This document shows positions 6,656-58,446 of a stretch of 64,000 bases of DNA, in pieces; position 1 is the first letter of the stretch; every line of letters starts with the position of its first letter. The position numbers and the translations under genes were made by a program. A model generated the notes under the pieces. The model searched no databases and was not told where the DNA came from. It was given only the letters and a program-made list of their open reading frames with translations. The DNA is taken from contig JAGXAQ010000005.1 of NCBI GenBank assembly GCA_018971485.1, positions 14,882 through 78,881 of the forward strand, written 5' to 3'. This stretch comes from Pseudomonadota bacterium (lineage in GTDB: Bacteria; Pseudomonadota; Gammaproteobacteria; Burkholderiales; REEB80).

Positions 6656-7105
6656 TCAATCAACCATATTCTTGGCTTCAGTGATGAAGTGCTGGATATG
6701 GTGATACAGGGTCTGATATGTGTCTTCAAAGGCCTGCTGTTTTCGCTCCTCATCCCCAACGACTGCTGCCGGGTCATCAAGGTTCCAGTGCTGGATGATT
6801 GCCTGGCCCGGCCAGATGGGGCAGGTCTGGGCTGCGCTGGAGCAGACCGTAATGATGAAATTCATTTTAGGTGCCCCAGGCGTGAGGAATTCATCCCATG
6901 ACTTGCTGCGCAAGGTGCTCTCCTTGAGGTTGTGGCGATGAAGGGTAATCCTGGTATAAGGATGAACCTGGCCTGCTGGCTGGCTACCTGCACTAAAAGC
7001 ATTGAATTCCCCCTGCCCAATCTGGTTGAGCAGGGCTTCTGCCAGGATGCTGCGCGCGGAGTTTCCTGTGCATAAAAACAGTACGTTAAGGGGAAAGGAT
7101 GTCAT
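6656..7105 (-). CDS. arsC: arsenate reductase, LMW-PTP / thioredoxin-coupled type
   Basis: 149-aa ORF with the LFLCTGNSARSILAEALLN P-loop (CX5R) and downstream Cys residues (TVCSSAAQTCP). Confidence 0.9.
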   Translation of the reverse strand: MTSFPLNVLFLCTGNSARSILAEALLNQIGQGEFNAFSAGSQPAGQVHPYTRITLHRHNLKESTLRSKSWDEFLTPGAPKMNFIITVCSSAAQTCPIWPGQAIIQHWNLDDPAAVVGDEERKQQAFEDTYQTLYHHIQHFITEAKNMVD

Positions 7106-7135
7106 GAGGGTCCTTGTTGTGCGAAAAGGGGCATC

Positions 7136-7489
7136 TCAGGTTCGGGTTTGCTTCTGCATGGCGGGAGTATCAGGTGGATGCAGCGGGGCTATCAAGGAAC
7201 AGCCCTGCCCATTGCAGCAGTTCTCGGACAGGAACCGGATAAGCGCCTCCATGGTGGCATAATGGGCCGTATAGTAAATGCGGCGCCCAGCATGCCGTGC
7301 CTTGATCAACTGGCATTCGACCAGATCGTTAAGATGAAATGACAGGGCAGAAGCCATGAGGTTGAGTTCCTGTGACAGGTTTCCTGCTGTCACGCCCTCC
7401 GGGCCTGCCTGGATCAGGCGACGAACGATCGAAAGCCGGGTCGCGTGGGCAAGGGAAGCAAAGGCAAGAAGGGCAGCGTCGGTATCCAT
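7136..7489 (-). CDS. arsR: ArsR/SmtB-family repressor with C-terminal CC-x4-C site
   Basis: Internal ATG at 7489 gives a 117-aa protein starting MDTDAALLAFASLAHATRLSIVRRL. wHTH region present. It has no ELCVCDL motif; instead ENCCNGQGC sits near the C-terminus, as in the Acidithiobacillus-type ArsR. Confidence 0.85.
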   Translation of the reverse strand: MDTDAALLAFASLAHATRLSIVRRLIQAGPEGVTAGNLSQELNLMASALSFHLNDLVECQLIKARHAGRRIYYTAHYATMEALIRFLSENCCNGQGCSLIAPLHPPDTPAMQKQTRT

Positions 7490-7511
7490 GGCACGTATTA
7501 TACAAATTTTA

Positions 7512-7541
7512 TTGAAATATTCAAATTTATTTGAAATAAAT
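7512..7541. promoter_or_regulatory. two adjacent inverted repeats upstream of arsR (candidate ars operator/promoter)
   Basis: TTGAA-ATA-TTCAA at 7512-7524 and ATTTATTT-G-AAATAAAT at 7525-7541, 23-52 nt upstream of the arsR ATG. Confidence 0.4.
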
Positions 7542-7614
7542 AAATGGTGGGGTATGACACCCCCACCTGTAGGATAGGACAAGAGGACTGTCTTCCGAGT
7601 AGGCCGGGACAGGG

Positions 7615-9660
7615 TTATGCAGGCAGACGGGATTTTAGCTTGGCTGCAATTTTCTCCTGGTCACATTTGGGGCAAAAGGGGTGCTCACCGTCGAGGTAAC
7701 CATGTTTGGGGCAGATAGAAAATGTGGGCGTGATGGTGAGGTAAGGAAGACTGAACCGTTCAAGCGCGCGTTTTACCAGATTCATGCAGGCTGTTGCACT
7801 GCTGATGCGTTCGGTCATGTACAGATGCAAAACAGTTCCCCCTGTATATTTCTTTTGAAGGGCATCCTGTTTTTCCAGCGCCTCAAATGGATCGTTTGTA
7901 TATCCGACAGGCAGTTGGGATGAATTGGTGTAATAAGGCTGTTCTGCAGTTCCGGCCTGGATGATGTCAGGATAGCGTTTTTGATCTTCCTTGGCGAAGC
8001 GGTAGGTTGTTCCTTCGGCAGGCGTGGCTTCAAGGTTGTACATATGTCCAGTCTCATCCTGAAATGAAAGCATCCTTTGTCGGATGTGATCAAGACACTT
8101 CAAGGCGAATGCATATCCTGATGCAGTGGTGATGTCATCCTCACCATTGCTGAAATTACGGATCATCTCGTTGATGCCATTAACGCCCAGTGTAGAAAAA
8201 TGGTTGCGCAGGGTGCCAAGGTATCGTTGGGTGTAAGGGAATAATCCAGCATCAATATGGTGCTGGATAACCTTTCGTTTAAGTTCCAGGCTGGTTTTTC
8301 CCAGATCAAGGAGGGTATCTAGCCGATTGAACAGCCCTGTTTCATCTGCCTTGTTGAGATAGCCGAGTCGGGCGCAGTTGATGGTGACAACACCAATGGA
8401 TCCGGTTTGTTCGGCACTTCCGAACAGACCATTGCCCCGTTTGAGCAACTCCCGCAAATCCAGTTGCAGACGACAGCACATGGATCGGATCATGTTGGGT
8501 TTGAGGTCTGAATTGATGAAATTCTGGAAATAAGGTAATCCATATCTTGCTGTCATTTCAAACAAGAGTTTTGCGTTATCGCTGTCCCATGGGAAATCGG
8601 GAGTCATGTTGTAAGTGGGAATGGGAAAGGTGAAAGCCCGCCCCTTGGCATCACCTTGCATCATGACTTCAATATAGGCCCGGTTGATGAGATCCATTTC
8701 TTCCTGGAGATCGCCGTAGCAAAAAGGCATTTCCTCCCCCCCTATAACCGGGATCTGGGACTTGAGATCCTCTGGACAGGTCCAGTCAAAGGTCAGGTTC
8801 GTAAAGGGGGTTTGCGTGCCCCAGCGTGATGGAACATTCAGGTTGTAGATGAGCTCCTGGATACACTGCCTGATGTCATGATAGCTCAGCCTGTCCTTGC
8901 GGATAAATGGGGCAAGATAGGTGTCGAACGAGCTGAATGCCTGGGCGCCGGCCCATTCATTCTGCAAGGTACCCAGAAAATTCACGATCTGGCCGACAGC
9001 GCTGGAGAGATGTCTGGGAGGGCCTGCCTCGACCTTTCCTGGAACCCCGTTCAGACCTTCTGATAGCAGGATGCGAAGGGACCATCCTGCACAGTATCCA
9101 GCCAGCATATCCAGATCATGGATATGCAGATCTCCCTGGCGGTGGGCAAATCCGACTTCAGGGGGATAGACATGGTTGAGCCAGTAGTTGGCAACCATTT
9201 TTCCTGAAATATTGAGAATGAGCCCTCCTAAGCTATAACCCTGATTGGCATTGGCCTGAACCCGCCAGTCCTGTTGCTCCAGATATTCATTGATTGAGCT
9301 GGCTACTTCGACCACGGTCTTGTTGTCCTGGCGAAGTTTTTTGTGTTGTTCACGGTAGACAATGTAGGCCCGGGCGGTCTGGAAATGATTGGATGAAATC
9401 AGGATCTGTTCAACGATATCCTGAATGCTTTCAATCGGCACCGCCTGGTTCTGGAATTTATGCATCAGGATCTTGGCAAGCTGTGCTGCAAGAAATCTGG
9501 CTTCAATATCATCAAATTCATGGCTGGCCTGTCCGGCTCTTGCAATTGCCGAGATGATTTTTTCAATGTTAAAGGCCGCAGGTTTCCCGTTCCGTTTGAT
9601 GACTTCCCTGGGGAGGTGCGCAAGAGGTGAGGCGGGATTCTGATTCAAGTAATCAAACAT
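7615..9660 (-). CDS. nrdD: anaerobic (class III) ribonucleoside-triphosphate reductase, large polypeptide lacking the glycyl-radical loop
   Basis: 681-aa ORF. N-terminal ATP-cone (VIKRNGKPAAFNIEKIISAI), NrdD core, and C-terminal Zn-ribbon SICPKHGYLDGEHPFCPKC followed by only 19 residues before the stop. No RVxGY motif. Confidence 0.9.
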   Translation of the reverse strand: MFDYLNQNPASPLAHLPREVIKRNGKPAAFNIEKIISAIARAGQASHEFDDIEARFLAAQLAKILMHKFQNQAVPIESIQDIVEQILISSNHFQTARAYIVYREQHKKLRQDNKTVVEVASSINEYLEQQDWRVQANANQGYSLGGLILNISGKMVANYWLNHVYPPEVGFAHRQGDLHIHDLDMLAGYCAGWSLRILLSEGLNGVPGKVEAGPPRHLSSAVGQIVNFLGTLQNEWAGAQAFSSFDTYLAPFIRKDRLSYHDIRQCIQELIYNLNVPSRWGTQTPFTNLTFDWTCPEDLKSQIPVIGGEEMPFCYGDLQEEMDLINRAYIEVMMQGDAKGRAFTFPIPTYNMTPDFPWDSDNAKLLFEMTARYGLPYFQNFINSDLKPNMIRSMCCRLQLDLRELLKRGNGLFGSAEQTGSIGVVTINCARLGYLNKADETGLFNRLDTLLDLGKTSLELKRKVIQHHIDAGLFPYTQRYLGTLRNHFSTLGVNGINEMIRNFSNGEDDITTASGYAFALKCLDHIRQRMLSFQDETGHMYNLEATPAEGTTYRFAKEDQKRYPDIIQAGTAEQPYYTNSSQLPVGYTNDPFEALEKQDALQKKYTGGTVLHLYMTERISSATACMNLVKRALERFSLPYLTITPTFSICPKHGYLDGEHPFCPKCDQEKIAAKLKSRLPA

Positions 9661-9710: not shown

Positions 9711-9757
9711 GCACAAAATGTGGTGTTTGTTTTTTTTATAAATACACGATGTAGTGT
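9711..9757. promoter_or_regulatory. tandem NrdR-box-like sites upstream of nrdD
   Basis: GCACAAAATGTGGTGT (9711-9726) and ATACACGATGTAGTGT (9742-9757). They match 12/16 and 11/16 of the published acaCwAtATaTwGtgt consensus. Centres are 31 bp apart. Confidence 0.5.
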
Positions 9758-9983: not shown

Positions 9984-9997
9984 GTGATCTGAATCAC
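9984..9997. promoter_or_regulatory. FNR/CRP-family box in the nrdD-ubiU divergent region
   Basis: Perfect palindrome GTGATctgaATCAC. Confidence 0.5.
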
Positions 9998-10221: not shown

Positions 10222-11253
10222 ATGATATTAGCATCAGGCCAAACTTCAGGCCGGATCCTTGAACTGGTCTGTCCAGCAGGCAGCATGCGTGCCTTGACCG
10301 CCGCATTCGAGGCAGGAGCAGATTGTGTTTATGTGGGGTTGAAAGGGCAGACCAATGCACGAAACTTTGCAGGCCTTAACTTTGATGAAAAGACATTGGC
10401 CCAGGCCACACAATATGCCCATCAATTGGGAAAGAAGGTTTATGTAGCCATTAATACCTATGCCCGGCAGCGTCACCTGGATGTATGGTATCGGGCCATT
10501 GATATGGCGCATGATGCCGGGGCTGATGCCTTGATTATGGCTGATATAACCTTACTGGATTATGCCCGGAAACAGTACCCCGGCCTGCGGCGCCATCTTT
10601 CGGTTCAGGGTGCGGCGACGAACCCTGAAGCGCTTCGCTTTTATCAGGAACAGTATGGGATCGTGCGGGCAGTTCTGCCTCGCGTGCTCTCCATTGAACA
10701 GGTAGAGCAGTTGATGGAGCATAGTCCTGTTGAAATTGAGCTATTTGGTTTTGGCAGTTTGTGTGTGATGCTTGAGGGCCACTGTGCGCTTTCTTCCTAC
10801 GCTGCCGGCGAGGCTCCCAACCTGCAGGGTGTCTGTTCACCTGCCAAGGCTGTTCGTTGGAAGACGACCCATGAAGGACTTGAATCCAGACTGAATGGCG
10901 TGCTGGTTGACAGGTTTGGTGAGAGTGAAAGTGCAGGCTACCCTACTATCTGTAAGGGGCGTTTCCGGGTTGGGGAGGACATGTATTACGCTATCGAGGA
11001 GCCAACCAGCCTTAACGTGCTTGCCCTTTTACCCAAAATCCTGCAATTGGGTATTTCCGCCATCAAGATAGAAGGCCGGCAGCGCAGTCCTGCATACGTG
11101 GCCCAGGTGACTCAAGTCTGGCGGCAGGCAATTGATCGGTGTCGACAGGCCCCGGGCAGTTATCGGGTTCTGCCTTTATGGAAAAATGAACTGGATAAGG
11201 TAGCAGAAGGGAATCAGCATACATTTGGCGCATATAGCCGCCCCTGGAAGTAG
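10222..11253 (+). CDS. ubiU: U32-family Fe-S protein UbiU (O2-independent ubiquinone hydroxylation)
   Basis: 343 aa. Collinear by eye with E. coli UbiU/YhbU (LELVCPAGS, GFGSLCVMLEGHCALSSY, GVCSPAK, GYPTICKGR, KIEGRQRSPAYV). Four Cys ligands present. Confidence 0.85.
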   Translation: MILASGQTSGRILELVCPAGSMRALTAAFEAGADCVYVGLKGQTNARNFAGLNFDEKTLAQATQYAHQLGKKVYVAINTYARQRHLDVWYRAIDMAHDAGADALIMADITLLDYARKQYPGLRRHLSVQGAATNPEALRFYQEQYGIVRAVLPRVLSIEQVEQLMEHSPVEIELFGFGSLCVMLEGHCALSSYAAGEAPNLQGVCSPAKAVRWKTTHEGLESRLNGVLVDRFGESESAGYPTICKGRFRVGEDMYYAIEEPTSLNVLALLPKILQLGISAIKIEGRQRSPAYVAQVTQVWRQAIDRCRQAPGSYRVLPLWKNELDKVAEGNQHTFGAYSRPWK

Positions 11254-11262
11254 GAGAGCAAG

Positions 11263-12204
11263 ATGGATGTTTCGGAAGTTGGACAGCTGGGTGTGCCCCG
11301 GCTTGCATTGGGCCCGCTTTATTACTATTGGCCGCGAAAGAAAGTTTTGGATTTTTATGCCGAAATGGCAAAAAGCCCGGTAGGGATTATTTACCTCGGA
11401 GAGGTGGTTTGCTCAAGACGGCATGAGCTCAGGTTGTCTGACTGGCTGGATTTGGCTCAGGATCTGAAGGCGGCCGGGAAAGAGGTTGTTTTGTCGACCC
11501 CTGTTCTGATTGAGTCACCTTCTGATTTGAAAGCCATGTGCAAGGTTGCGGAAAACGGTGAGTTTGATGTTGAGGTGAATGACATGGGTGCCTTGCAAAA
11601 ATGTATCGGCGAGGTTGGTTTCGTGGCAGGGCCCCATCTGAATCTATACAATGCAGGCAGTCTGGACATGGTTACGAGACTTGGGGCAAAGCGCTGGGTG
11701 ATGCCAATAGAGTATTCCCGGGAAGCACTCATGGAACTCCTGTCGCAACTGGTTTATCCGATAGAAACGGAAGTATTTGTTTTAGGTCGCTTACCTCTTG
11801 CCTACTCAGCGCGGTGTTTTACTGCGCGCTACCATAACCTATCCCGTGACAAATGTGAATTTCGCTGTATTGATGATCCGGATGGTTTGTTGCTTCAAAC
11901 CCGTGAGGATCAGCCCTTTCTTACCATAAACGGGACACAGACCCAGTCGGCACGAACGTATTGCCTGATTGACCAGATGGATGCCTTGAAAGCAGGCCAG
12001 GTATCCGTCCTTAGATTAAGCCCCCAGTCAAGATATATGAATGAGATTATTGAAACATTTGATGCCTGCTCTCATGGTCTGATAGAAGGGCTTTCGGCCC
12101 GGGCCCTGATGGAAAAATGGATGCCCGTTTCCTCCTGTGATGGTTATTGGCATGGGCAACCAGGTATGGATGCCTGGCGCTTGAAGGAAGAAGAGTGGCA
12201 GTAA
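11263..12204 (+). CDS. ubiV: U32-family Fe-S protein UbiV
   Basis: 313 aa. [36 protein letters not shown] and CDGYWHG resemble E. coli UbiV/YhbV. AGGAG Shine-Dalgarno 6 nt upstream. Confidence 0.85.
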
Positions 12205-12248
12205 ATCCGTCTGCTGACAGAAAACAAAAAGGGCTTCTGGCCAGGATC

Positions 12249-12620
12249 ATGTCCAGTTTGCCCCAATGGCCCCCTTCGAGGGTGTTTGTAATGGTCTTGA
12301 ATTTTGCTTTTCAGCGGTGCTCAAACGGGGTCGATTTGGCCGGGCTGGAAGGTCATGTGTTCCAGATTCAGGTGGTGGATTTAGGTTTTAAACTGACTTT
12401 TGAGCGGACTCAGAAGTGTTTTGCAGCTGCAGGGCATCATCGTATCCCAGATCTGGTGATTAGCGCTGCATCCCGTGACTTCTGGTCCCTCATTCAGGGC
12501 AGGGAAGATCCGGATACCCTGTTTTTTAACCGAAAACTGTTAATTGAAGGGGATACCGAGCTGGGCCTTTTAGCCAAGAATATCATTGAGTCGATAAGTT
12601 GGCCCTCATTGAAATATTAG
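12249..12620 (+). CDS. ubiT: SCP2-domain lipid-binding protein UbiT
   Basis: EDPDTLFFNRKLLIEGDTELGLLAKNI closely matches the E. coli UbiT/YhbT core QDPDTLFFQRRLVIEGDTELGL. Start placed at ATG 12249. An upstream GTG at 12195 overlapping ubiV is possible. Confidence 0.8.
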   Translation: MSSLPQWPPSRVFVMVLNFAFQRCSNGVDLAGLEGHVFQIQVVDLGFKLTFERTQKCFAAAGHHRIPDLVISAASRDFWSLIQGREDPDTLFFNRKLLIEGDTELGLLAKNIIESISWPSLKY

Positions 12621-12748
12621 GTGTTTTGGATACTCAAAACATCACCTTCCGGAGCAGGTGAGAACGTCTGTCAGGTGGACGGGTGTGTGCTGGATCCGGA
12701 TTTTTGGTTATTGATATTTTTGATCAATCCAGTTCTTTTCTAAAAAAC

Positions 12749-12762
12749 GTGATCCAGGTCAC
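12749..12762 (+). promoter_or_regulatory. FNR/CRP-family box with class-II spacing to a -10 hexamer
   Basis: GTGATccagGTCAC. TAAAAT at 12784-12789 starts 28.5 bp from the box centre. ATG of the downstream gene is at 12837. Confidence 0.55.
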
Positions 12763-12836
12763 GAGGTCTGGATTTTATCGTCTTAAAATAGGCTGATATG
12801 TCATGATTTGGCTTGGCCAATAAAAGGATAGGGACT

Positions 12837-14045
12837 ATGGATCAGCCCCAAGTGTCACTGCGTGGAGCATTCCCTCAGGGGCTAGCCCATTTTAAGCTGC
12901 GTTCCAAAACCCTGCTCCCGATCGTTCAGGGGGGGATGGGAGTCGGTATTTCTGCGCATAACCTGGCAGGCCATGTCGCAAGCCTTGGAGCGATGGGGAC
13001 AATTTCAAGCATTGACTTAAGACGTTTGCATCCGGATCTGATGGAACAAACCGGACGGTGCAGGAATCGGGATCTGATTGAATCGGCCAATCTGGTGGCA
13101 TTGGACCGGGAAATTCAGGCTGCAAAGAAGATTGCCGGAGGAAACGGATTTATTGCAGTCAATGTAATGCGGGCGGTCAGCCAGTATCGGGATTATGTCA
13201 GGCAATCTTGCATCAGCGGAGCCGATGCGATTGTCATGGGTGCAGGTTTACCCCTGGAATTGCCAGAACTGGCCCAGGATTGGCCGGAAGTCGCCTTGAT
13301 CCCCATCCTGTCAGACTCAAGAGGAATTGCTATCCTGTTAAAAAAATGGATGCGAAAAAACCGGCTGCCGGATGCGATTGTCATTGAACATCCAGGGTAT
13401 GCTGGAGGTCATCTGGGTTCACCTCAGCTTGAGAACCTGGATGATCCGCGTTTTGCATTCGAGAGGGTTCTGGATGAGACTCAATCCAGATTCCAGGAAA
13501 TGGGATTAGCTGTCGATAGTATTCCGCTCATTGTCGCAGGAGGAATCCATTCCCATGAACAGATCCGTTCTTTTCAGGAGATGGGTGCTGCTGGCGTTCA
13601 GATTGGTACTGCCTTTGCTGTGACGGCGGAAGGGGATGCACATCCCCTGTTCAAGAAAGTATTGGCAGAAGCCAAACCTGAAGATATTGTGACATTCATG
13701 AGTGTGGCCGGGCTACCGGCAAGGGCTGTATTGACCCCATGGCTCGAAAATTACTTACGGCGGGAACAAAAACTAAAGAAACTGGCTCACCCTTTACGTG
13801 GACGGTGCACACTAGGCTGGGATTGCCTCATTCAATGTGGTTTGCGGGATGGAGATGCAAAATCAGGCCAGTTTTGCATTGACCATCAACTGGCTGCCGC
13901 CTTAAAAGGTGATCTGCAGAAAGGTCTCTTTTTCCGGGGCTCTGAACAGTTGCCTTTTGGGCCAGCCATTCGAAAGGTAGCTGAATTGATGTCATATCTA
14001 TTGACAGGAATCGAACCTGCCTGTGCTGAAAGTGATCCTGCCTGA
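12837..14045 (+). CDS. NMO-family (nitronate monooxygenase / FMN-dependent) oxidoreductase with Cys-rich C-terminal segment
   Basis: 402 aa from ATG 12837 (AAGGA Shine-Dalgarno). LPIVQGGMGVGIS FMN-barrel motif and VAGGIHSHEQ. C-terminal CTLGWDCLIQCGLRDG...FCID. Confidence 0.8.
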   Translation: MDQPQVSLRGAFPQGLAHFKLRSKTLLPIVQGGMGVGISAHNLAGHVASLGAMGTISSIDLRRLHPDLMEQTGRCRNRDLIESANLVALDREIQAAKKIAGGNGFIAVNVMRAVSQYRDYVRQSCISGADAIVMGAGLPLELPELAQDWPEVALIPILSDSRGIAILLKKWMRKNRLPDAIVIEHPGYAGGHLGSPQLENLDDPRFAFERVLDETQSRFQEMGLAVDSIPLIVAGGIHSHEQIRSFQEMGAAGVQIGTAFAVTAEGDAHPLFKKVLAEAKPEDIVTFMSVAGLPARAVLTPWLENYLRREQKLKKLAHPLRGRCTLGWDCLIQCGLRDGDAKSGQFCIDHQLAAALKGDLQKGLFFRGSEQLPFGPAIRKVAELMSYLLTGIEPACAESDPA

Positions 14046-14334
14046 CAACCCCATGGTCTTCGGGTCGGTCAGGATGAAAGAGCCCCTCTTGAAGGGAGGC
14101 CAGCATCTTCAGGATCACGCAACCCTTCAGTTCTAATCTGTTTTAACTGGATTATCCTATTGTTAACTCATTATGCCAGATTGAATGTGAGGCATGAAAA
14201 GGAACCGTTTTGCGTTTTGTTCGGGAAAGGGCGGACAAGAGGTTTCAGGTCTGGATGGGTATGGTTTTCTCAAATGGAAGGGATATCAGGACATAAAAAA
14301 TGATACGTCTCTTTTTCAGGTTATAGCCCATCTT

Positions 14335-14348
14335 GTGATCTAGGTCAA
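14335..14348 (+). promoter_or_regulatory. FNR/CRP-family box of the hemN promoter
   Basis: GTGATctagGTCAA. TAGAAT at 14371-14376 starts 29.5 bp from the box centre, which is class-II geometry. Confidence 0.6.
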
Positions 14349-14414
14349 AATAGACCTGCTAGAGCGCATTTAGAATACGAAGCACTATCAAGATAATGTG
14401 TGGACAAGGGTGCG

Positions 14415-15791
14415 ATGATTTTAGCTCAGGAACTAATTGCGCGGTATGACTTGAATGGCCCAAGATATACCTCTTATCCGAGCGCGGATCACTTCTCGGG
14501 TAACTGGTCCGAGAAGGACTACCAGTTCGAGCTGCAGCAGCGGGCAGAGCATCGCCGTGATGATCCCCTCTCTATTTATATCCATATCCCCTTTTGTGAA
14601 AATATTTGTTACTACTGTGCGTGTAACAAGATTATTACGAAGGATCATCGGCGCTCGGCCCAGTACGTCACGAGCCTTATCCAGGAAATGGATCAGGTGA
14701 TTGAACAACTCGGTCATCCATCCTGCCTGCTGCAGCAGATTCATTTGGGAGGAGGCACCCCTACTTTTCTGAGCGATGAGGAATTAGGGCGCATCATGAC
14801 TGCCCTGAAGGAGCGCTTCCAGTTTTCCAGTCAGGGTGAATATTCAATTGAAATTGATCCTCGGCATGCCAGAACAGGCACGATAGCGTATTTGCGTCAA
14901 ATTGGATTTAATCGCATGAGTCTTGGGGTCCAGGATTTTGATGAGAAGGTTCAGCAGGCCGTGCATCGTGTACAGCCAGTACAGATGACCCTTTCTGTAC
15001 TTGAAGAAGCCAGGGCCCAGGGGTTTACCTCCATTAACATGGATCTGATTTATGGGCTGCCCTTTCAGACCCTGGACAGTTTTTCCCGGACGCTGGCACG
15101 GGTGATTGAGGCCCATCCGGATCGAATAGCCCTTTATAACTATGCCCATCTGCCCCACGCCTTTGCGCCTCAACGGCGCATAGATGAGGCAACTCTTCCG
15201 CCAGGCCAGTTGAAAATAGAGCTGCTCGCCATGGCTGTTCAAACACTTACTGATGCCGGTTATCTTTATATTGGCATGGATCATTTCGCCCTGCCTCAGG
15301 ATGAACTGGCCCGGGCTCAATCCGAGAAAAGGCTTGAGCGGAACTTTCAGGGGTATTCCATATATCCCCAGTTTGATCTGATTGGGCTTGGAGTCTCTGC
15401 AATCGGCAAGGTTGGCAGGGCTTATGTACAAAACGTAAAAACACTTGAGGCCTATTATGACCGTCTGGATCAGGGCAGACTGGCAACCTATCGTGGATTC
15501 AGGCTCACGTTCGATGATTTGCTCAGAAGAAAGGTGATTCAATCCCTGATGTGTAATTTTGAGCTGGAAATGATTCGTGTGGATGAAGAGTTTGGGATTG
15601 ATTTCGAAGCTTACTTTGAGCCGGAATTGAACCGGATGCAGGAATTTTTAGACGCAGGATTCCTCAAGATAGCTAACCGGATGATTACAGTCGCCACCCT
15701 CGGCCGTTATTTTATTCGTCCTATCTGCATGCTTTTTGATGTTTATCTTGAGAAAAAACGGGACAAGCCTCTTTATTCCAGAACGATTTAA
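14415..15791 (+). CDS. hemN: oxygen-independent coproporphyrinogen III oxidase (radical SAM)
   Basis: LNGPRYTSYPSADHF, radical-SAM cluster FCENICYYCAC, and GGGTPTFL. 458 aa from ATG 14415. A GTG at 14400 is the alternative start. Confidence 0.9.
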   Translation: MILAQELIARYDLNGPRYTSYPSADHFSGNWSEKDYQFELQQRAEHRRDDPLSIYIHIPFCENICYYCACNKIITKDHRRSAQYVTSLIQEMDQVIEQLGHPSCLLQQIHLGGGTPTFLSDEELGRIMTALKERFQFSSQGEYSIEIDPRHARTGTIAYLRQIGFNRMSLGVQDFDEKVQQAVHRVQPVQMTLSVLEEARAQGFTSINMDLIYGLPFQTLDSFSRTLARVIEAHPDRIALYNYAHLPHAFAPQRRIDEATLPPGQLKIELLAMAVQTLTDAGYLYIGMDHFALPQDELARAQSEKRLERNFQGYSIYPQFDLIGLGVSAIGKVGRAYVQNVKTLEAYYDRLDQGRLATYRGFRLTFDDLLRRKVIQSLMCNFELEMIRVDEEFGIDFEAYFEPELNRMQEFLDAGFLKIANRMITVATLGRYFIRPICMLFDVYLEKKRDKPLYSRTI

Positions 15792-15850
15792 TGGGCAGGG
15801 CTCTTATCTGTTGATAAAAAGGAATGAACACAATTGGAGAATGAATCACC

Positions 15851-16594
15851 ATGATCAACCCTAAAAGTAAATCGCACCAGATACCTGCCCTCGGAAAGAT
15901 TCGGTGTGATGAATGTCCTATCCAGAATGTGTGTTTTCCCAAGGAACTGAGCCCGGAAGAACTGAAAGAAATTGGATCGGTAAGCGTGAAGCACCGGATT
16001 GTGCATGAAGGGGATTACCTGTTTCATGCTGGGGAAAAATGCCATGCCTTTTATGTGGTGCATAGTGGTTTTTTTAAGTCCATTAAACGATTTTATAATG
16101 GCTATGAACAGGTTATCGGATTTCAGATGAATAGTGACGTCATAGGAATGGATGGGATGGCCTCCAATCTGCATTCAACTGATGTGGTGGCCTTGGAAAC
16201 GTCCGAGGTTTGCCTGATTGATCCGGCCTCGATTGACTCCGTCCCCACGCTGAAAAAACTGCATCGCCATTTTGATCAGGTATTTAGCCGGGAAATTATC
16301 CGCCTGCAGAATATGGCCCTGTTGCTAGGAGGGATGAATGCCCATCAAAAGATGGCTGCATTCCTGATTAATCTTTCGAAACGGTTTGAACGGCTTAATT
16401 ATTCCCGAAACGAGTTTTATTTGCGCATGACCCGGGTTGAACTTGCCAGTTATCTTGGGTTGACCAATGCAACCATTTCCAGAACACTGACTGTTTTCAA
16501 GACAATGGGTCTTATTAAGACGAATGGTCGCAAGATTGTGATTTCTGATTATGAAAAACTGCTCTCCATTATTCTGGATACCCATTTGGGCTAG
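15851..16594 (+). CDS. fnr: FNR-type O2-sensing Crp/Fnr-family regulator
   Basis: 247 aa. N-terminal Cys cluster RCDECPIQNVC (C-x2-C-x5-C, as in E. coli FNR C20/C23/C29) plus SEVCLI (C122-like). C-terminal HTH is YLGLTNATISRTL. Confidence 0.9.
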   Translation: MINPKSKSHQIPALGKIRCDECPIQNVCFPKELSPEELKEIGSVSVKHRIVHEGDYLFHAGEKCHAFYVVHSGFFKSIKRFYNGYEQVIGFQMNSDVIGMDGMASNLHSTDVVALETSEVCLIDPASIDSVPTLKKLHRHFDQVFSREIIRLQNMALLLGGMNAHQKMAAFLINLSKRFERLNYSRNEFYLRMTRVELASYLGLTNATISRTLTVFKTMGLIKTNGRKIVISDYEKLLSIILDTHLG

Positions 16595-16695
16595 GCACCA
16601 GGAATGATGGATTTCCCCTAGCGCCTGTTTCTTTCCTGATAAAAGGGATCGTGCTGTCATGTCTCTTGGAAGATGTTCAATAATTTCGCTCTGCA

Positions 16696-16709
16696 GTGAT
16701 TTAGCTCAC
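16696..16709 (+). promoter_or_regulatory. FNR/CRP-family box upstream of the radical-SAM/SPASM gene
   Basis: GTGATttagCTCAC. TACAAT at 16731-16736 starts 28.5 bp from the box centre. Confidence 0.55.
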
Positions 16710-16893
16710 TCTTCTTGTTCTAACAGTCCTTACAATAAGATGCAGCTTACATTCAATTTTTAAAAGCCCTTTCTGAACCCGGGGCCTGCCCTGATTTCTT
16801 TGACAGGGGTAGTTGCCGGGTTATCAGGCTTGAGTGCCAAGAATTGGCTATCCTTTTAAATCAAAACTATATGGCTGCAGGAATGTGGATAAA

Positions 16894-18018
16894 ATGGAAC
16901 AGATAGAGCCGGTTATAACCGGAAGCCGGGTTGAGTTGCAGTTGCTTACCACCTTGAAATGTAATTTACGATGCAGTTATTGTGCCTTGGGAACAGGCAA
17001 CGTCCTGAATTCACAAAAACAGGTCACTTATTCAGTAGAACACCTGAAAAATTTTATTGAGACCCATTTGTCTGACCATGAAGTGTACATCTCACTTTAT
17101 GGAGGTGAGCCGACGCTTAACACAGGCTTTATTCTGGAATTGATGGAGACGCTCCCTTTTTCCCGCTTTAACCTTCAAACCAATGGCACCTTGCTGGATA
17201 GGTTGCCTGAGTCTATCTTGGACCGTTTATCCAACGTCATGGTTTCGCTGGATGGAGGAAGGGGTACTACGGATGGATATCGTGGTCGTGGTGTCTATGA
17301 GAAGGTGTTTCACAATATGGGCATCATCCGGCCCAAATTATCAGGAACCTTGACGGCCCGGGTAACCTGGTGGAGCGGGGATACCTGTTTTGAGGAACTG
17401 GATGAACTGGTCAGGCAATTTGATTACCTTTATTTCCAGTTTGCCCAGGATGCGGGTGCGTATGCACCGGAGTCGGTTGTCAAGAAAAAGGCCGTGCTGG
17501 CACAGTTGATCCGGCAATTTTTTAAGAACGGGACGTTTTACCCGGTAGTACCGATAATGGGAATAGTCAGGAATCTGGTTTTACCAGGCAGGGGGAATGA
17601 GTTGACTTCCGGATTGAGCCAATGCCGGGTTTCTACCAATCTTCTTAATGTGATGCCCGATGGCAAGATTTATCCTTGTCCCGATATGATGTATAGACCT
17701 GAACTGCTGCAAGGGGACATTGTGGAAAACTGGGTTCAAAAAAGTGTACTGCAACCTCATCCTGATATGCCCTGTGATAGCTGCTCAGCTCTTGATTTTT
17801 GCAAGCGTAACTGCATGAAGAACCTGTATCTGGCTTATGTGGTTCATGATGAGGAGTGGAAAAGGAATGTGACTGAGCCGACTTGTGATCTTATTCGATT
17901 CATGGGTGAGGAGGTGGCAAGGTACCAGCCCCATGCATGGTATGCCAATGCCCCCCTTTCTTTCAGGAATAAGGTGGCTAATGCTGAAGTATACGAATTC
18001 TGTGAGGTGATGCCCTGA
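16894..18018 (+). CDS. radical SAM enzyme with C-terminal SPASM domain (anSME / peptide-maturase-like), substrate unknown
   Basis: CNLRCSYC (CX3CX2C), GGEPTLN, NLQTNGTLL, and SPASM motifs GKIYPCPD and CDSCSALDFCKRNC (CX2CX5CX3C). Start placed at ATG 16894. The ORF is open from GTG 16834. Confidence 0.85.
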   Translation: MEQIEPVITGSRVELQLLTTLKCNLRCSYCALGTGNVLNSQKQVTYSVEHLKNFIETHLSDHEVYISLYGGEPTLNTGFILELMETLPFSRFNLQTNGTLLDRLPESILDRLSNVMVSLDGGRGTTDGYRGRGVYEKVFHNMGIIRPKLSGTLTARVTWWSGDTCFEELDELVRQFDYLYFQFAQDAGAYAPESVVKKKAVLAQLIRQFFKNGTFYPVVPIMGIVRNLVLPGRGNELTSGLSQCRVSTNLLNVMPDGKIYPCPDMMYRPELLQGDIVENWVQKSVLQPHPDMPCDSCSALDFCKRNCMKNLYLAYVVHDEEWKRNVTEPTCDLIRFMGEEVARYQPHAWYANAPLSFRNKVANAEVYEFCEVMP

Positions 18019-18061: not shown

Positions 18062-18757
18062 TCAGCGATAGGTGAATTTTGGAAAAAGATCCTGGATCAT
18101 CAGAAGGAGGGCTTCACTGGGGTAGTGTTTTTCGGTGTATAAGTTGAATGGAGCAGCCATTTCCGGGCGGGGATGGAAGCTCTGGATGACATAATGTTGT
18201 ACTCCCATGCTGGATAGGGTTCTGGCAATGGAGAGCAAATCATCTTCCGTCAGGAGTTGGGGATGAAAAGTGGTCCTGGCTTCAAAATCGATACCTTGAC
18301 TGAGCACCAGATCAAGGCTGGTTTGGGCCTGTTTGCTGCTGTGCCTGACTTTTGTGAGCTGATCATAGCGGCTGCCTTCAAAAGGAGCCTTGATATCCAG
18401 GCCTATCCAGTCTAGCTTGTCCAGGACAGCCTTGAGGCGTTGAGGATAGATTCCGGCGGTGTGTAATCCTACCAGAAAATCCTGCTCCCTGATCCATTGG
18501 ATGGCTTCAGGTAAATAGCGTTCAGCCGTGGGCTCTCCTCCACTTAATACGACAGCATCTAAAAATTTTTTCCGGGCAGACAGGAGCTTGATGACCTGTT
18601 CCCATTCCAGGGAGGGTTTGGTTCGTGTTTGCAGGTGGGGGTTATGGCAATAGCCACAGCGCCAGGGGCAACCCTGTAAAAACAGCACGGCTGCCAATTG
18701 CCCAGGATAGTCGATGGTACTGAAAGGAACCAGACCACCGACTTGGGGGGTGCCCAC
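18062..18757 (-). CDS. nrdG: anaerobic ribonucleotide reductase activating protein (radical SAM, NrdG2 type)
   Basis: 231 aa. FSTIDYPGQLAAVLFLQGCPWRCGYCHNP cluster motif and SGGEPT. Starts 4 nt after the stop of the glycyl-radical ORF. Confidence 0.85.
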   Translation of the reverse strand: MGTPQVGGLVPFSTIDYPGQLAAVLFLQGCPWRCGYCHNPHLQTRTKPSLEWEQVIKLLSARKKFLDAVVLSGGEPTAERYLPEAIQWIREQDFLVGLHTAGIYPQRLKAVLDKLDWIGLDIKAPFEGSRYDQLTKVRHSSKQAQTSLDLVLSQGIDFEARTTFHPQLLTEDDLLSIARTLSSMGVQHYVIQSFHPRPEMAAPFNLYTEKHYPSEALLLMIQDLFPKFTYR

Positions 18758-18761: not shown

Positions 18762-18947
18762 TTAACCCTGGCTTACCTGTTCAATAAAAAACTTCCTTTC
18801 AGTAAATTCGCCTTTTTTACCGATGTTGAAAGAAGAAACCGGACGGTGATAACCCATGACACGGGTCCAGATTTCACAGGGCTGCCGTTCTTCATTTGTC
18901 AGCAGGGTTAAACCGCCCGGATTGGATTCATTTGCAGGAAGAATCAT
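18762..18947 (-). CDS. stand-alone glycyl-radical domain matching the NrdD C-terminus
   Basis: 61 aa from ATG 18947, preceded by AAGGAGatacaag. CEIWTRVMGYHRPVSSFNIGKKGEFTERKFF matches the RVxGY...N.GK..E...R glycyl-radical signature of class III RNRs. The Gly codon is at 18852-18854. Confidence 0.8.
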   Translation of the reverse strand: MILPANESNPGGLTLLTNEERQPCEIWTRVMGYHRPVSSFNIGKKGEFTERKFFIEQVSQG

Positions 18948-19020
18948 CTTGTATCTCCTTAAGTCAGGTTCAGATAGGGATCTGCCCTGTTTTATGGCCA
19001 GGGCTCTGGTTCGCATAGAA

Positions 19021-19067
19021 TTACTATATGTTGTAATGCAATGCTAAAATAACACTATATATGGCTA
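19021..19067. promoter_or_regulatory. tandem NrdR-box-like sites upstream of the glycyl-radical ORF / nrdG
   Basis: TTACTATATGTTGTAA (19021-19036, 11/16) and ACACTATATATGGCTA (19052-19067, 12/16). Centres are 31 bp apart, the same spacing as at nrdD. Confidence 0.5.
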
Positions 19068-19113: not shown

Positions 19114-19127
19114 GTGATCCAGATCAG
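19114..19127. promoter_or_regulatory. FNR/CRP-family box upstream of the glycyl-radical ORF / nrdG operon
   Basis: GTGATccagATCAG. No convincing -10 hexamer at class-II distance. Confidence 0.4.
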
Positions 19128-42953: not shown

Positions 42954-43529
42954 ATGCAAGACAGTCATGATAATCCAATGAATCCGGATACGGAATTGCC
43001 GGAACAGAACGAAAAAGAACCTGGAGTGCAAGGGGAAGTGGGTCAGGAAATACCTGAAGCTGGCGTGACAAATGAAGCCGAACTGTTTGAAAAGCTTAAC
43101 GAAGCAGAAGCGTTGGCACAAACCCACAAGGATGCCTGGTTGCGTTCTGTGGCAGATGCGGAGAATCTGCGTAAACGGATGGAAAATGAACTTGTCCAGA
43201 CCCGCCGGTATGCAGTAGAAGGACTTGCATCTGAGCTGGTTGTGATTCGCGACAACCTGGAGCGGGCCCTGTCCGTTGAAAATGTCAGCACTGAATCGAT
43301 ACGTGAGGGTGTAGAGCTCATTTACAAGTCCCTGAACGGGATTTTTGAAAAATATCACCTGGTTGAGTTAAATCCGGAACATGAAAAGTTTGACCCGAAT
43401 CTTCACCAGGCTATCTCCATGGTTGATTCGGAACTACCGCCAAACATGGTTGTGTCAGTTTTACAAAAAGGGTACAGGCTCAATGATCGCGTGTTGCGCC
43501 CTGCATTGGTCATGGTTTCAAAAGGTTGA
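42954..43529 (+). CDS. grpE: nucleotide exchange factor GrpE
   Basis: 191 aa. RSVADAENLRKR and GYRLNDRVLRPALV motifs. GAAGGAGG Shine-Dalgarno. Confidence 0.95.
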   Translation: MQDSHDNPMNPDTELPEQNEKEPGVQGEVGQEIPEAGVTNEAELFEKLNEAEALAQTHKDAWLRSVADAENLRKRMENELVQTRRYAVEGLASELVVIRDNLERALSVENVSTESIREGVELIYKSLNGIFEKYHLVELNPEHEKFDPNLHQAISMVDSELPPNMVVSVLQKGYRLNDRVLRPALVMVSKG

Positions 43530-43552
43530 AATTTTTGGTGAAGGCGCCATAT
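43526..43552 (+). promoter_or_regulatory. possible sigma-32-type promoter for dnaK
   Basis: TTGAAA (43526-43531), 13-nt spacer, then CGCCATAT (43545-43552). Partly overlaps the grpE stop. Confidence 0.35.
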
Positions 43553-43594
43553 CCCCTATGAAACCCGAAATTCACATTAAAGGATTAAATGATT

Positions 43595-45499
43595 ATGGCT
43601 AAGATTATTGGTATTGATTTGGGCACGACGAATTCATGTGTGGCGGTTATGGAAAGTGGACGCCCAAAAGTAATTGAAAATTCGGAAGGGGCAAGAACCA
43701 CTCCTTCTATTGTTGCCTATACGGAAGATGGTGAAGTTCTGGTTGGTGCTCCTGCTAAACGTCAAGCTGTGACCAACCCGAAAAATACCCTTTTTGCGGT
43801 TAAGCGTCTCATAGGCAGACGGTATGACGAAAAGATTGTTCAGCGGGATATAGACATGGTTCCCTATTCCATTGTACGTGCAGATAATGGAGATGCATGG
43901 GTAGAGGTCCGTAACCGGAAAATTGCGCCTCCGGAAGTATCTGCGGCAGTACTGTCCAAGATGAAAAAGACAGCCGAAGACTATCTGGGAGAAACGGTCA
44001 CTGAAGCGGTTATTACCGTTCCTGCCTATTTTAATGATTCCCAGCGGCAGGCGACCAAAGATGCGGGCCGGATTGCCGGTCTGGATGTCAAGCGCATTAT
44101 CAATGAGCCGACAGCGGCAGCATTGGCCTTTGGCCTTGATAAACAAGAAGGGGATCGCAAGATTGCCGTTTATGATCTGGGCGGCGGCACGTTTGATATT
44201 TCCATTATTGAGATCTCCGAGGTGGAAGGGGAACACCAGTTTGAGGTGCTCTCGACTAATGGAGATACGTTCCTTGGCGGGGAGGATTTTGATTTGCGTA
44301 TCATTGACTATCTGGCTGAGGAGTTCCAGAAAGACAATGGGATTGACTTAAGAAAGGACATGCTGGCCTTGCAGCGACTGAAAGAGGCTGCAGAAAAAGC
44401 CAAGATTGAGCTTTCGAGCACACAGCAGACCGAGGTCAACCTGCCCTATATTACTGCGGATCAGTCCGGACCTAAACATCTGGCCGTGCGGATTACCCGC
44501 GCGAAATTTGAATCCCTGGTGGATGATCTCATCGAGCGCACGATTGCACCGTGCCGGACCGCAATCAAGGATGCCGGAGTGAAGGCATCGGATATTAGCG
44601 ATGTGATTCTGGTTGGTGGCCAGTCCCGGATGCCTAAGGTTCAGGAAAAGGTGCGTGAGTTTTTTGGTCGTGAGCCGCGTAAAGATGTGAATCCGGATGA
44701 GGCCGTGGCCATTGGTGCAGCGATTCAAGGAGGTGTACTGCAAGGTGAGGTCAAGGATGTGCTGTTGCTGGATGTTACCCCTCTGTCACTGGGGATTGAA
44801 ACGCTAGGTGGCGTGATGACCAAGCTGATTGCGAAGAACACGACCATTCCAACCAAGGCAAGCCAGGTGTTTTCGACTGCTGATGACAACCAGACCGCAG
44901 TAACCATTCATGTTCTGCAAGGAGAGCGTGATGTGGCGTCGGGTAACAAGAGTTTGGGGCAATTTAATTTAACGGATATTCCGCCGGCTCCTCGAGGGAT
45001 GCCGCAAATTGAAGTGACCTTTAATATTGATGCCAATGGTATCTTGAATGTTTCTGCGAAGGATAAGGCTACCGGGAAGGAAAACAAGATAACAATCAAG
45101 GCATCCAGTGGATTGTCTGAAGAGGAGATTCAGCGCATGGTTCATGATGCTGAGGCTCATGCCGCAGAAGATCGTGAGGCGCTGGAACTGGTGAATGCCC
45201 GTAATCAGGGCGATGCCCTGGTTCATGCTGTCAAGAAAACACTGGCAGAAGGTGCTGATAAGCTGAATAATAGTGACAAGACTGCTGTCGAGGCTGCCCT
45301 GAAGGATCTTGAAGAAGCTTTGAAAGGCAATAGCCTTGATGATATCAAGACCAAGACAGAAGCGTTATCCAAGGCATCTGCAGGTCTGGCTGAACAGATG
45401 TATAAAGGAGATTCTGGCGCTTCAGCAGAAGCAGATTCCGGCAAAGATGATCATGTTGTTGATGCCGAGTTTGAAGAAGTGAAGGATGAGAAACGCTAG
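43595..45499 (+). CDS. dnaK: molecular chaperone DnaK
   Basis: [26 protein letters not shown] and the rest of the Hsp70 body. ATG 43595 is preferred over 43589. Confidence 0.98.
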
Positions 45500-45510
45500 A
45501 GTAGTCTGGC

Positions 45511-45550: not shown

Positions 45551-45561
45551 GACGGATACCT

Positions 45562-50217: not shown

Positions 50218-50231
50218 GGAGTTTGTGAACG

Positions 50232-58443: not shown

Positions 58444-58446
58444 AAA

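Follow-up and report, generated by a model that had tools for sequence, protein, structure and literature searches.

A putative two-polypeptide class III ribonucleotide reductase with its glycyl-radical loop in a separate 61-residue ORF

Genes of the locus

The window, i.e. the whole 64-kb stretch of DNA that was analysed, contains three ORFs on its minus strand that are assigned to a class III ribonucleotide reductase (RNR): nrdD (7615..9660) for a large, catalytic subunit of 681 aa and 77 kDa, a small ORF (18762..18947) for a putative glycyl-radical subunit of 61 aa and 7.0 kDa, and nrdG (18062..18757) for a radical-SAM activase of 231 aa. The positions of all three, first proposed from a sequence-only reading of this DNA, were confirmed. 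NrdG scores 197 bits with the NrdG2 model TIGR02495 (cut-off 131) and has the cluster motif CX3CX2C as CPWRCGYC at residues 30-37; its GTG start (18757) is 4 nt past the TAA of the small ORF. The small ORF and nrdG are 9 kb from nrdD, and seven genes on the other strand lie between. This separation was seen in one assembly, a metagenome-assembled genome.

The 681-aa NrdD consists of an ATP-cone (Pfam PF03477), a core that matches positions 2-531 of 562 of PF13597 (NRDD) with 585 bits, and a C-terminal Zn-ribbon. It scores 1133.8 bits with the NCBIfam model NF006126 (cut-off 548; profile positions 3-650 of 684) and 465 bits with TIGR02487 (cut-off 326). Its alignment reaches residue 707 of 743 in PDB 8p23 and residue 613 of 651 in PDB 4coi; in both the profile matches and the matches to NrdD chains of the PDB, the homology spans the whole barrel core that is a feature of class III RNR. 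The NxN flap is N137-A-N139. The finger loop S393-M-C-C-R397 aligns with the MGCR loop of Prevotella copri NrdD, and by this alignment the cysteine predicted to become the thiyl radical is present; the finger-loop type with a double cysteine and a methionine has been described (PMC9669993). The predicted Zn-ribbon (7663..7713, minus strand) was read from the sequence as C650-P-K-H653 ... C663-P-K-C666, and this C-x2-H ... C-x2-C arrangement aligns with the CPKC of P. copri NrdD. The closest NrdD in the species genomes is at most 82% identical to the 681-aa protein.

The RVxGY glycyl-radical motif, expected in a class III RNR on the same chain as the core, is present here only in trans. Translation and a tblastn search of the whole window with the small protein found it neither in the 681 aa nor in any frame downstream of the nrdD stop, which bears out the earlier observations that the large ORF lacks the motif and that nothing past its stop restores it. 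Past the last Zn cysteine, the chain runs on for 15 residues and not for 19 as previously counted, and these residues form a conserved C-terminal tail (DQEKIAAKLKSRLPA; 7618..7662, minus strand) that is specific to the split form and has the motif D-x-E-x-[LI]-A-x-K-[RQ]. Among 76 distinct tails of related split loci, D1 is found in all 76, [LI]5 in 74, A6 in 66 and K8 in 71; unsplit relatives have a linker of 3-11 aa at this site. The tail may help the small subunit or NrdG to dock. The description of nrdD as truncated, in the sense of damaged, had to be abandoned: the gene encodes the normal large subunit of a large clade, with a conserved C-terminal tail of its own.

The small glycyl-radical ORF

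The 61-aa protein (MILPANESNPGGLTLLTNEERQPCEIWTRVMGYHRPVSSFNIGKKGEFTERKFFIEQVSQG) has a conserved core at residues 16-54, and its putative radical glycine is G32 of RVMGY (codon 18852-18854). A Shine-Dalgarno sequence, AAGGAG (18955..18960, minus strand, read from the sequence), ends 7 nt before the ATG, in agreement with the initial description of an RVxGY motif within a short ORF that has a strong Shine-Dalgarno sequence and lies 4 nt from nrdG. In a Pfam scan at E ≤ 1, the only match of the protein is to PF13597 (positions 531-562 of 562, E 1.2e-7, above the gathering score); there is no match to PF01228 (Gly_radical). With NF006126, the match covers positions 649-682 of 684. No second copy of the small protein or of nrdD was found by tblastn within the 64-kb window. 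A profile of the small family, which is very short, had no match at E ≤ 1 among PDB sequences, and an AF2 model of the 61-aa protein alone, based on an alignment of 42 sequences, had a mean pLDDT of 54 and a short helix at residues 23-30 only, a low confidence that speaks neither for nor against docking.

Among 42 stand-alone homologues, 25 columns are invariant while the termini vary. The median dN/dS of the small ORF is 0.088 (35-codon core, 83 distinct sequences), with synonymous sites near saturation. Judged from these comparisons, the small ORF is a conserved gene with translation of its own, and the purifying selection that acts on it across dozens of genomes is strong.

Fit of the two pieces to unsplit relatives

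The two polypeptides tile the family profiles. The large ORF accounts for positions 3-650 of NF006126 and the small ORF for 649-682, with no columns lost, and the corresponding stretches of Pfam NRDD are 2-531 and 531-562; as had been anticipated for a split enzyme, the large ORF ends near the Zn-ribbon and the small ORF supplies the remaining C-terminal columns. An unsplit relative, the 627-aa NrdD of Acidiphilium cryptum plasmid pACRY03, shares 73% identity with the large piece and 82% with the small piece, and joins them by no more than an 11-residue linker (CPRC-AAEEPATIPRV-CEVWTRVMGYHRPVSSFNIGK...). A search with the C-terminal 128 aa of this protein, in which the matches were of 224 aa or less and mostly contig-end fragments, yielded 86 further single-chain fragments, mostly actinobacterial, with linkers mostly of 3 or 11 residues. 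In a crude neighbour-joining tree (a short alignment of 113 columns, without support values), split and unsplit forms interleave, with at least nine state changes by parsimony. In the solved NrdD structures, a Zn site, a Gly loop that is buried and a tail on the surface together form a mobile glycyl-radical domain (PMC11226230). Its mobility as a unit makes a chain break behind the Zn site structurally plausible.

Regulatory sites

Tandem NrdR boxes are located upstream of nrdD (9711..9757; boxes at 9711-9726 and 9742-9757, with one and two mismatches to ACACNANATNTNGTGT, respectively) and upstream of the small ORF-nrdG unit (19021..19067; boxes at 19021-19036 and 19052-19067). In both pairs, 16-bp boxes are spaced 31 bp from start to start with 15 bp between them, in agreement with the NrdR-site spacing of about 15-16 bp that has been reported (10.1101/2024.05.27.596032). 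These (9711/9742 and 19021/19052) are the only tandem NrdR pairs at 31 bp in the 64 kb, where Markov simulation gave a mean of 0.25. Of 74 related loci, 57 have an NrdR pair upstream of nrdD. Linked operons, of which 62 were compared, have none in the interval from nrdD to the small gene, and the pair before the small ORF is therefore specific to the unlinked arrangement.

FNR/Dnr-like palindromes with two mismatches each are present in the intergenic region between nrdD and a divergent U32-peptidase gene (GTGATCTGAATCAC; 9984..9997) and upstream of the small ORF (CTGATCTGGATCAC on the minus strand; 19114..19127), and are alike at 12 of 14 positions. At two mismatches the pattern has 60 matches in the window, with 45 expected, which is not convincing enrichment, and these boxes were rejected as evidence on their own. 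Of the pair of regulatory motifs originally reported at both loci, the NrdR element is specific, occurring as two pairs only; the FNR-like element exists but is weak.

Distribution of the split

A survey of related genomes located the Gly loop in a separate ORF of about 55-80 aa at 80 of 81 related loci with nrdD adjacent, the usual gene order being nrdD-small-nrdG. The split is found in Cupriavidus necator, C. metallidurans CH34, Paracoccus, Bradyrhizobium, Shinella, Sulfuricurvum and Ralstonia solanacearum (133 megaplasmid records for the last). Among the compared loci, the 9-kb separation of nrdD is peculiar to the window and the split itself is not. Matches to the small protein at E ≤ 1e-3 comprise 3671 clusters at 90% identity, the best 120 of which are all 53-79 aa long; at 50% identity there are 1723 representatives, and the best 150 of these all have lengths of 54-108 aa. 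The split, as the compared sequences attest, is not an error, a frameshift or a one-off.

At the 80 split loci, the small ORF is in a different frame from nrdD in 62 cases and in the same frame after a stop in 18, and the nearest ATG of the small ORF ranges from a 4-nt overlap to about 300 nt past the nrdD stop; this variation of frame and spacing fits an independent gene rather than recoding. At no locus examined does the small gene adjoin a full-length nrdD. Orphan small genes, which have no nrdD and no nrdG within 10 kb, were found at loci L041, L072 and L064 and on plasmid pAt1 of Allochromatium tepidum; the orphan of L041 is located between genes for a UvrD-type helicase and rubrerythrin. 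A phage collection contained no stand-alone relatives, and gave two weak matches, one of them under an annotated full-length NrdD gene.

Proposed function and alternative explanations

Comparative genomics makes it highly probable that the three genes encode a two-polypeptide class III RNR, in which NrdG generates the glycyl radical on the small subunit and the radical is used in trans. NrdD would provide the ATP-cone, the substrate and effector sites, the finger-loop cysteines and the Zn-ribbon, and the 61-aa protein would provide the loop bearing the radical glycine G32. NrdG, whose coding sequence begins 4 nt further along the same message, would abstract a hydrogen from G32 by means of S-adenosylmethionine and its [4Fe-4S] cluster. 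The loop of the small subunit would sit inside the barrel of the large subunit, opposite C395/C396, and hand the radical to the active-site cysteine at each turnover, in the way known for the covalently attached loop of single-chain enzymes. The two transcription units are predicted to be repressed by NrdR via the tandem boxes and are probably induced at low oxygen; under such shared control, the three proteins would appear together despite the location of nrdD 9 kb away. The sequence-only reading had already proposed a loop supplied in trans in the manner of GrcA; comparative genomics supports the split and action in trans, and the analogy with GrcA is functional only.

It is very unlikely that the 61-aa protein is instead a spare part like GrcA, replacing the cleaved loop of a full-length NrdD that works elsewhere, with the 681-aa ORF as a decaying or re-purposed paralogue. 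The orphan small genes of other genomes (L041, L072, L064 and A. tepidum pAt1) would suit such a role, and with 64 kb of the genome visible, a full-length nrdD could lie elsewhere. However, the large ORF is intact, scores twice the cut-off of NF006126 and has its own NrdR operator; a loop-less large gene directly adjoins the small gene in 80 of 81 loci, whereas no examined locus has the small gene beside a full-length nrdD, and the large subunits keep a conserved tail specific to the split state. Even less probable is an inactive system, in which a dead class III RNR is kept by chance while a class II (B12) enzyme makes the anaerobic dNTPs, although many carriers of the split also have NrdJ. 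Cupriavidus holds all three RNR classes and cobalamin rescues its pHG1-free strain, according to the CH34 genome paper (PMC2864759), and both facts would accord with such a replacement. Yet the dN/dS of 0.088, the invariant RVMGY and the intact nrdD and nrdG in about 80 diverse genomes are at odds with decay, and on a C. necator plasmid of the size of pHG1 the class III RNR locus is split.

The two ORFs might also yield one chain after all, by programmed frameshifting, read-through, ribosomal bypass or protein trans-splicing, or owe their separation to a sequencing or assembly artefact. In favour of one chain, 18 of the 80 split loci have the small ORF in the nrdD frame, TGA is the stop of many nrdD genes, and ATGA overlaps occur between several of the ORFs. 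Against it, the ratio of 62 different to 18 same frames was judged close to the 2:1 expected for unrelated frames, the spacing ranges from -4 to about 300 nt, and a strong Shine-Dalgarno sequence and an ATG belong to the small ORF itself. The split also occurs in finished genomes from many laboratories, and neither piece has a Pfam intein domain. In the window, the genes are 9 kb apart with seven opposite-strand genes between them; recoding explanations are excluded there because nrdD is unlinked and separately controlled by NrdR. A single chain is accordingly the least credible of these alternatives, its probability being close to nil.

Comparison with known systems

Glycyl-radical enzymes are described as single chains with the radical glycine near the C-terminus, and the one recognised exception to our knowledge is GrcA (YfiD), the repair protein of pyruvate formate-lyase. 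The proteins of the window belong to the same family (NF006126/TIGR02487/PF13597) as the single-chain NrdD enzymes that act with NrdG in phage T4, Escherichia coli, Thermotoga maritima and P. copri, and have in common with them the ATP-cone, the NxN flap, the finger-loop cysteines, the Zn-ribbon, RVxGY, an NrdG2-type activase and control by NrdR. In the single-chain enzymes, one C-terminal domain of the same chain comprises the Zn site together with the Gly loop and the C-terminal tail (PMC11226230), whereas in the window the large chain ends past the Zn-ribbon with a new conserved tail, and the Gly loop is the product of a separate gene, which has a start codon of its own and encodes an N-terminal extension that varies.

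Like GrcA, the small protein (61 aa; homologues 53-108 aa) stands alone and has only a Gly loop, and like GrcA it would be activated by the activase of the parent enzyme and act in trans. It is not homologous to GrcA, as it has no match to PF01228. Moreover, GrcA repairs a full-length pyruvate formate-lyase whose loop has been removed by oxygen, whereas the partner of the small protein is natively loop-less; the small protein would therefore be an obligate subunit rather than a repair part. A full-length parent enzyme, such as GrcA serves, is found beside the small gene neither in the window nor in 80 of the 81 related loci. A 2026 review notes spare-part proteins for formate-lyases only, and no account of a class III RNR in two pieces came up in literature searches.

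The class II NrdJa/NrdJb of Pseudomonas aeruginosa is likewise an RNR chain divided between two genes, with a C-terminal accessory part encoded separately (PMC9669993; also PMC4520616), and a family-wide analysis of 2022 considered split domains to be possibly distinct to class II (PMC9669993). That enzyme uses adenosylcobalamin and has no protein radical store, and its zinc finger is on the small piece; in the window, the Zn-ribbon stays on the large piece and the small piece would itself carry the radical. The arrangement also resembles class I NrdA/NrdB, in which a stable radical is kept on a smaller subunit of its own, from which it reaches the catalytic subunit. However, NrdB is an unrelated ferritin-like metalloprotein that has a tyrosyl or metal-centred radical and operates by long-range transfer, whereas the small subunit of the window is a fragment of the catalytic chain's own fold.

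Possible advantage and implications of the split

A physiological advantage of a separate loop might be, for example, the cheap replacement of a 7-kDa piece after oxygen cleavage at the glycyl radical. It is conceivable, though rather doubtful, that the small subunit is an exchangeable, sacrificial radical cartridge, swapped after cleavage at G32 so that the 77-kDa subunit survives oxic episodes. NrdG would then activate the small subunit free in solution, docking would be mediated by the D-x-E-x-[LI]-A-x-K tail of the large subunit and an L-x-x-x-E-R-Q-P segment of the small subunit, and orphan small genes, one of them next to rubrerythrin, would encode extra cartridges. If so, class III RNR would be the first glycyl-radical enzyme with a radical element that is separate and replaceable by design, and the cartridge would be a minimal natural substrate for studies of activase-substrate recognition. 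Facultative aerobes (actinobacteria) also have unsplit relatives, and ecology therefore does not clearly support the view of the split as an adaptation to fluctuating oxygen.

If the two-polypeptide interpretation is correct, the picture of an essential enzyme changes for a large conserved clade, which has the loop on a chain of its own of roughly 7 kDa and to which model denitrifiers and R. solanacearum, a plant pathogen, belong. If the large subunit is expressed on its own, with no small gene, it should be inactive, and older genetics would have to be re-read, as nrdD/nrdG constructs may or may not contain the small gene. The split enzyme could be a tractable system for finding out how an activase gains access to a glycine buried in the mature enzyme, and how oxygen cleavage of the radical site is dealt with in facultative anaerobes; the window, with its unlinked nrdD and separate NrdR control, is a natural control. 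The annotation of both large and small nrd ORFs would also be affected. The RefSeq name for the small gene is "nrdD". The small ORF is often annotated as hypothetical or left unannotated, and the large ORF alone is routinely named NrdD.

A probable class III ribonucleotide reductase in two pieces

By ORF translation and profile matches, the nrdD gene (7615..9660, minus strand) encodes a 681-residue chain with an ATP-cone (Pfam), an NxN flap (N137-A-N139), a finger loop (S393-M-C-C-R397) and a Zn-ribbon (C650-x2-H653...C663-x2-C666), and ends 15 residues past C666 (not 19, as counted in the sequence-only reading) without an RVxGY motif. A motif of this kind is found in a 61-residue protein (18762..18947, minus strand), likewise identified by ORF translation and profile matches. 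The strong Shine-Dalgarno sequence and 4-nt gap to nrdG noticed earlier are both present: AAGGAG lies 7 nt ahead of the ATG of the small ORF, and 4 nt separate its TAA stop from the GTG start of nrdG (18062..18757, minus strand), which encodes a TIGR02495 (NrdG2) activase with CX3CX2C at residues 30-37. A tblastn search of the whole window found no second copy of the small protein and none downstream of nrdD, in agreement with the claim that nothing there restores the motif.

The two proteins tile the NrdD profiles exactly. Pfam NRDD (562 positions) is matched at positions 2-531 by the large ORF and 531-562 by the small ORF (E 1.2e-7, above the gathering score), and NCBIfam NF006126 (684 positions) at 3-650 (1133.8 bits, cut-off 548) and 649-682, the small ORF covering the remaining C-terminal positions as the sequence-only reading had anticipated. 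Among solved structures, 8p23 aligns with the large protein to residue 707 of 743 and 4coi to residue 613 of 651; these NrdD chains extend 36-38 residues past the Zn-ribbon alignment, residues that the large protein lacks. The glycyl-radical domain of Prevotella copri NrdD, highly mobile as a whole, consists in order of the Zn site, a buried Gly711 loop and a surface tail (PMC11226230); by comparison, the break point in the window falls between the Zn site and the Gly loop. Judged by sequence features, the enzyme belongs to class III in every respect save the defining glycine motif, which lies off the catalytic chain. Structure prediction for the small protein on its own (mean pLDDT 54) leaves most of the chain unstructured, a weak sign that it may fold on its partner.

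Unsplit relatives

Acidiphilium cryptum pACRY03 encodes a 627-residue single-chain NrdD with 73% identity to the large protein and 82% to the small, joined as CPRC-AAEEPATIPRV-CEVWTRVMGYHRPVSSFNIGK. By pattern match, a Zn-ribbon is followed by CExWxRVxGY on one chain in 86 of 120 C-terminal NrdD fragments, mostly actinobacterial, with linkers mostly of 3 or 11 residues. These junctions and linkers indicate that the split state differs by a stop codon, by a ribosome-binding site and start codon that are new, and by added sequence on either side of the break. In the split state, the large subunit has gained a conserved tail of 13-25 residues (D-x-E-x-[LI]-A-x-K-[RQ]...), and the small subunit a variable N-terminus that leads into a conserved L-x-x-x-E-R-Q-P segment. 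The nrdD gene, earlier called truncated, is intact, its short end not being due to damage. At loci L004-L006, L092 and many Castellaniella and Pusillimonas loci, some split large subunits have an ATP-cone (about 673-681 residues) and others lack one (about 568-577 residues), so the split is not tied to allosteric activity regulation. Split and unsplit forms interleave in a crude tree that is too weak for event counts.

Other chains were noticed among the homology search proteins. P0297, a 172-residue metagenome fragment, reads CPKC-DEERLAE-MWTRVMGYHRP in a single chain, with the start of the split-type tail motif fused directly to the Gly loop, and appears to come from a split gene that was later fused again. 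P0322, P0358, P0371, P0389, P0356 and P0315 are NrdD C-terminal proteins of 150-220 residues on contigs of 33-491 kb, among them a Streptomyces protein of 154 residues. Frameshifted genes called in fragments may account for them, as may other natural break points.

Gene order and regulation

In related loci the usual layout is nrdD, small gene and nrdG as one operon, with a tandem NrdR-box pair ahead of nrdD in 57 of 74 and between nrdD and the small gene in none of 62. In the window, nrdD lies 9 kb from the small gene and nrdG, with seven plus-strand genes in between. Three genes of this "anaerobic island" (10222-18018), two of the U32 family and one SCP2 gene, presumably encode the proteins UbiU, UbiV and UbiT that make ubiquinone without oxygen; the other four encode an NMO-family protein, a HemN-type radical-SAM protein (the gene preceded by an FNR-like site, 14335-14348), a Crp/Fnr regulator, and a 394-residue radical-SAM protein with a cysteine-rich C-terminus (16834-18018). 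Noviherbaspirillum autotrophicum has the linked operon flanked by the same neighbours in a different order, indicating that rearrangement inside the island parted the genes.

The only two tandem NrdR pairs of the window are located at 9711/9742 ahead of nrdD and 19021/19052 ahead of the small ORF, against an average of 0.25 pairs in simulated sequences. In each pair the boxes are separated by 15 bp, in agreement with the spacing reported for NrdR operators (10.1101/2024.05.27.596032). Therefore, the unlinked small gene and nrdG have gained NrdR control of their own, as expected if all three products must appear together. The sequence-only reading had placed NrdR-like and FNR-like boxes at both loci; the former hold. 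The FNR-like palindromes at 9984-9997 and 19114-19127, which share 12 of 14 positions, are unproven, sites of equal quality being common in the window.

Directly downstream of nrdD (6656-7582, minus strand) are genes for an ArsR-family regulator (7136-7582; Pfam HTH_20/HTH_5) and a putative 149-residue arsenate reductase of the low-molecular-weight-phosphatase type (6656-7105), assigned by its CTGNSARS motif only. On the plus strand, grpE-dnaK-dnaJ (42954-46674) and a 14-subunit-type nuo operon (49283-63729; NuoD, F, G, H, L, M and N confirmed) indicate that the window, with 49.4% GC and taken from a metagenome-assembled genome, is chromosomal.

Homologues and alternative explanations

In a protein search the small ORF matched 3671 clusters at E<=1e-3, the best 120 all of 53-79 residues. 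Among 1.84 billion representatives scanned exhaustively with HMMER, 1723 matched at E<=1e-3 (327 at E<=1e-10), the best 150 of the 1723 all of 54-108 residues. Forty-two aligned small proteins differ at their N- and C-termini and have 25 invariant columns (L16, E20-Q22, C24, E25, W27-P36, S39, N41, G43-E47, R51 and F54). A scan of one genome per species found at least 600 matching stretches, 597 of them confirmed, a count that takes in unsplit relatives with the same peptide motifs; the best 80 loci and six fetched earlier were analysed. The survey proposed in the sequence-only reading reveals the split to be widespread across many genomes, not unique to this one: nrdD adjoins the small ORF in 81 analysed loci and is split from it in 80. 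At the single "fused" locus, that of Massilia sp. H-1, frameshifts break nrdD into five pieces.

Could the split be due to recoding or misassembly? Of the 80 split loci, 62 have the small ORF out of frame with nrdD and 18 have it in frame after a stop, and its nearest ATG may overlap the nrdD stop by 4 nt (ATGA) or lie as far as about 300 nt past it; this ratio of about 2:1 and the free spacing are expected of independent genes, not of programmed recoding. With the 9-kb separation in the window and the occurrence of the split in finished genomes, recoding and artefact, including the frameshift or assembly error raised earlier, are excluded. Across 83 distinct sequences, the median dN/dS of a 35-codon core (placed by a motif pattern that all loci matched) is 0.088, with a median dS of about 1.1 and many pairs saturated. 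The small ORF is a real, independent, conserved gene, and the purifying selection on it contradicts a dead class III system. So does PMC2864759, which describes the NrdDG of pHG1 as essential to complete denitrification.

The sequence-only reading likened the small protein to GrcA/YfiD, the autonomous glycyl-radical cofactor of pyruvate formate-lyase, and it might similarly be a spare part for a full-length NrdD encoded elsewhere. Some other genomes have small genes with neither nrdD nor nrdG in reach, which may be genuine spares or remnants: L041 (9995-10177, flanked by genes for a UvrD-type helicase and rubrerythrin), L072 (9932-10165), L064 (3764-4003) and L094 (2460-2645, Allochromatium tepidum pAt1, after a 198-residue "zinc-finger-containing protein"). 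A spare-part role in the window is argued against by a large gene that is intact, NrdR-controlled and specifically modified, and that adjoins the small gene in other genomes.

Proposed mechanism and precedent

The two proteins are therefore very probably subunits of one class III RNR. NrdG would abstract a hydrogen from G32 in the small subunit, whose loop would dock in trans in the barrel of the large subunit, facing the finger-loop cysteines, possibly with a role for the conserved tail; catalysis would thereafter resemble that of single-chain class III RNRs. One may speculate that the advantage is the cheap replacement of a 7-kDa piece after oxygen cleavage at the radical; unsplit relatives are also found in oxygen-exposed actinobacteria. 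What was observed from sequence alone is confirmed, and its interpretation is supported with corrections.

The genes are already in public annotation, but full-text searches, which reached neither subscription literature nor RNRdb, found no description of a split class III RNR; earlier notice is possible. A 2022 family-wide analysis of RNR extensions treats split class II enzymes and considers split domains perhaps distinct to class II (PMC9669993).

Carriers and annotation

The species-genome matches listed are mostly from Burkholderiales and Nitrosomonadales, with Acidithiobacillus and Pseudoxanthomonas also among them; metagenome-assembled carriers listed belong to Deinococcaceae, Parachlamydiales, Elusimicrobiota, Verrucomicrobiota, Fibrobacterota, Coriobacteriia, Desulfovibrionaceae and Bacteroidaceae. 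The order nrdD-small-nrdG is found on the Ralstonia solanacearum megaplasmid (133 small-protein records including GMI1000; order read in OE1-1) and a 453-kb plasmid of Cupriavidus necator, and in C. metallidurans CH34, Paracoccus ferrooxidans, Bradyrhizobium ottawaense, Shinella and Sulfuricurvum; P. denitrificans, P. versutus and B. japonicum have a small-protein match only.

In RefSeq (PGAP) the small gene appears as "nrdD: anaerobic ribonucleoside-triphosphate reductase" and the large gene as "ribonucleoside triphosphate reductase"; older GenBank records give the small gene as hypothetical or leave it out. The large ORF of the C. necator plasmid (locus L090, 1783-3813) encodes 676 residues (76.19 kDa), of which residue 650 is the glycine of T-H-G650-Y, within the Zn-ribbon. 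Siedow et al. in 1999 reportedly described a 76.2-kDa NrdD and assigned the conserved radical glycine to G650; in that case the true one, which lies on a 66-residue ORF downstream, was overlooked. NrdDG of CH34 is given as Rmet_5137 and Rmet_5139 (PMC2864759), and the gap in numbering would fit a small ORF unmentioned in that paper. On Thiothrix fructosivorans pTfr153 (L093, 1784-3507), where the small gene and nrdG are annotated, the large nrdD matches as two overlapping pieces with no listed CDS, probably through a sequencing error or because it is a frameshifted pseudogene.
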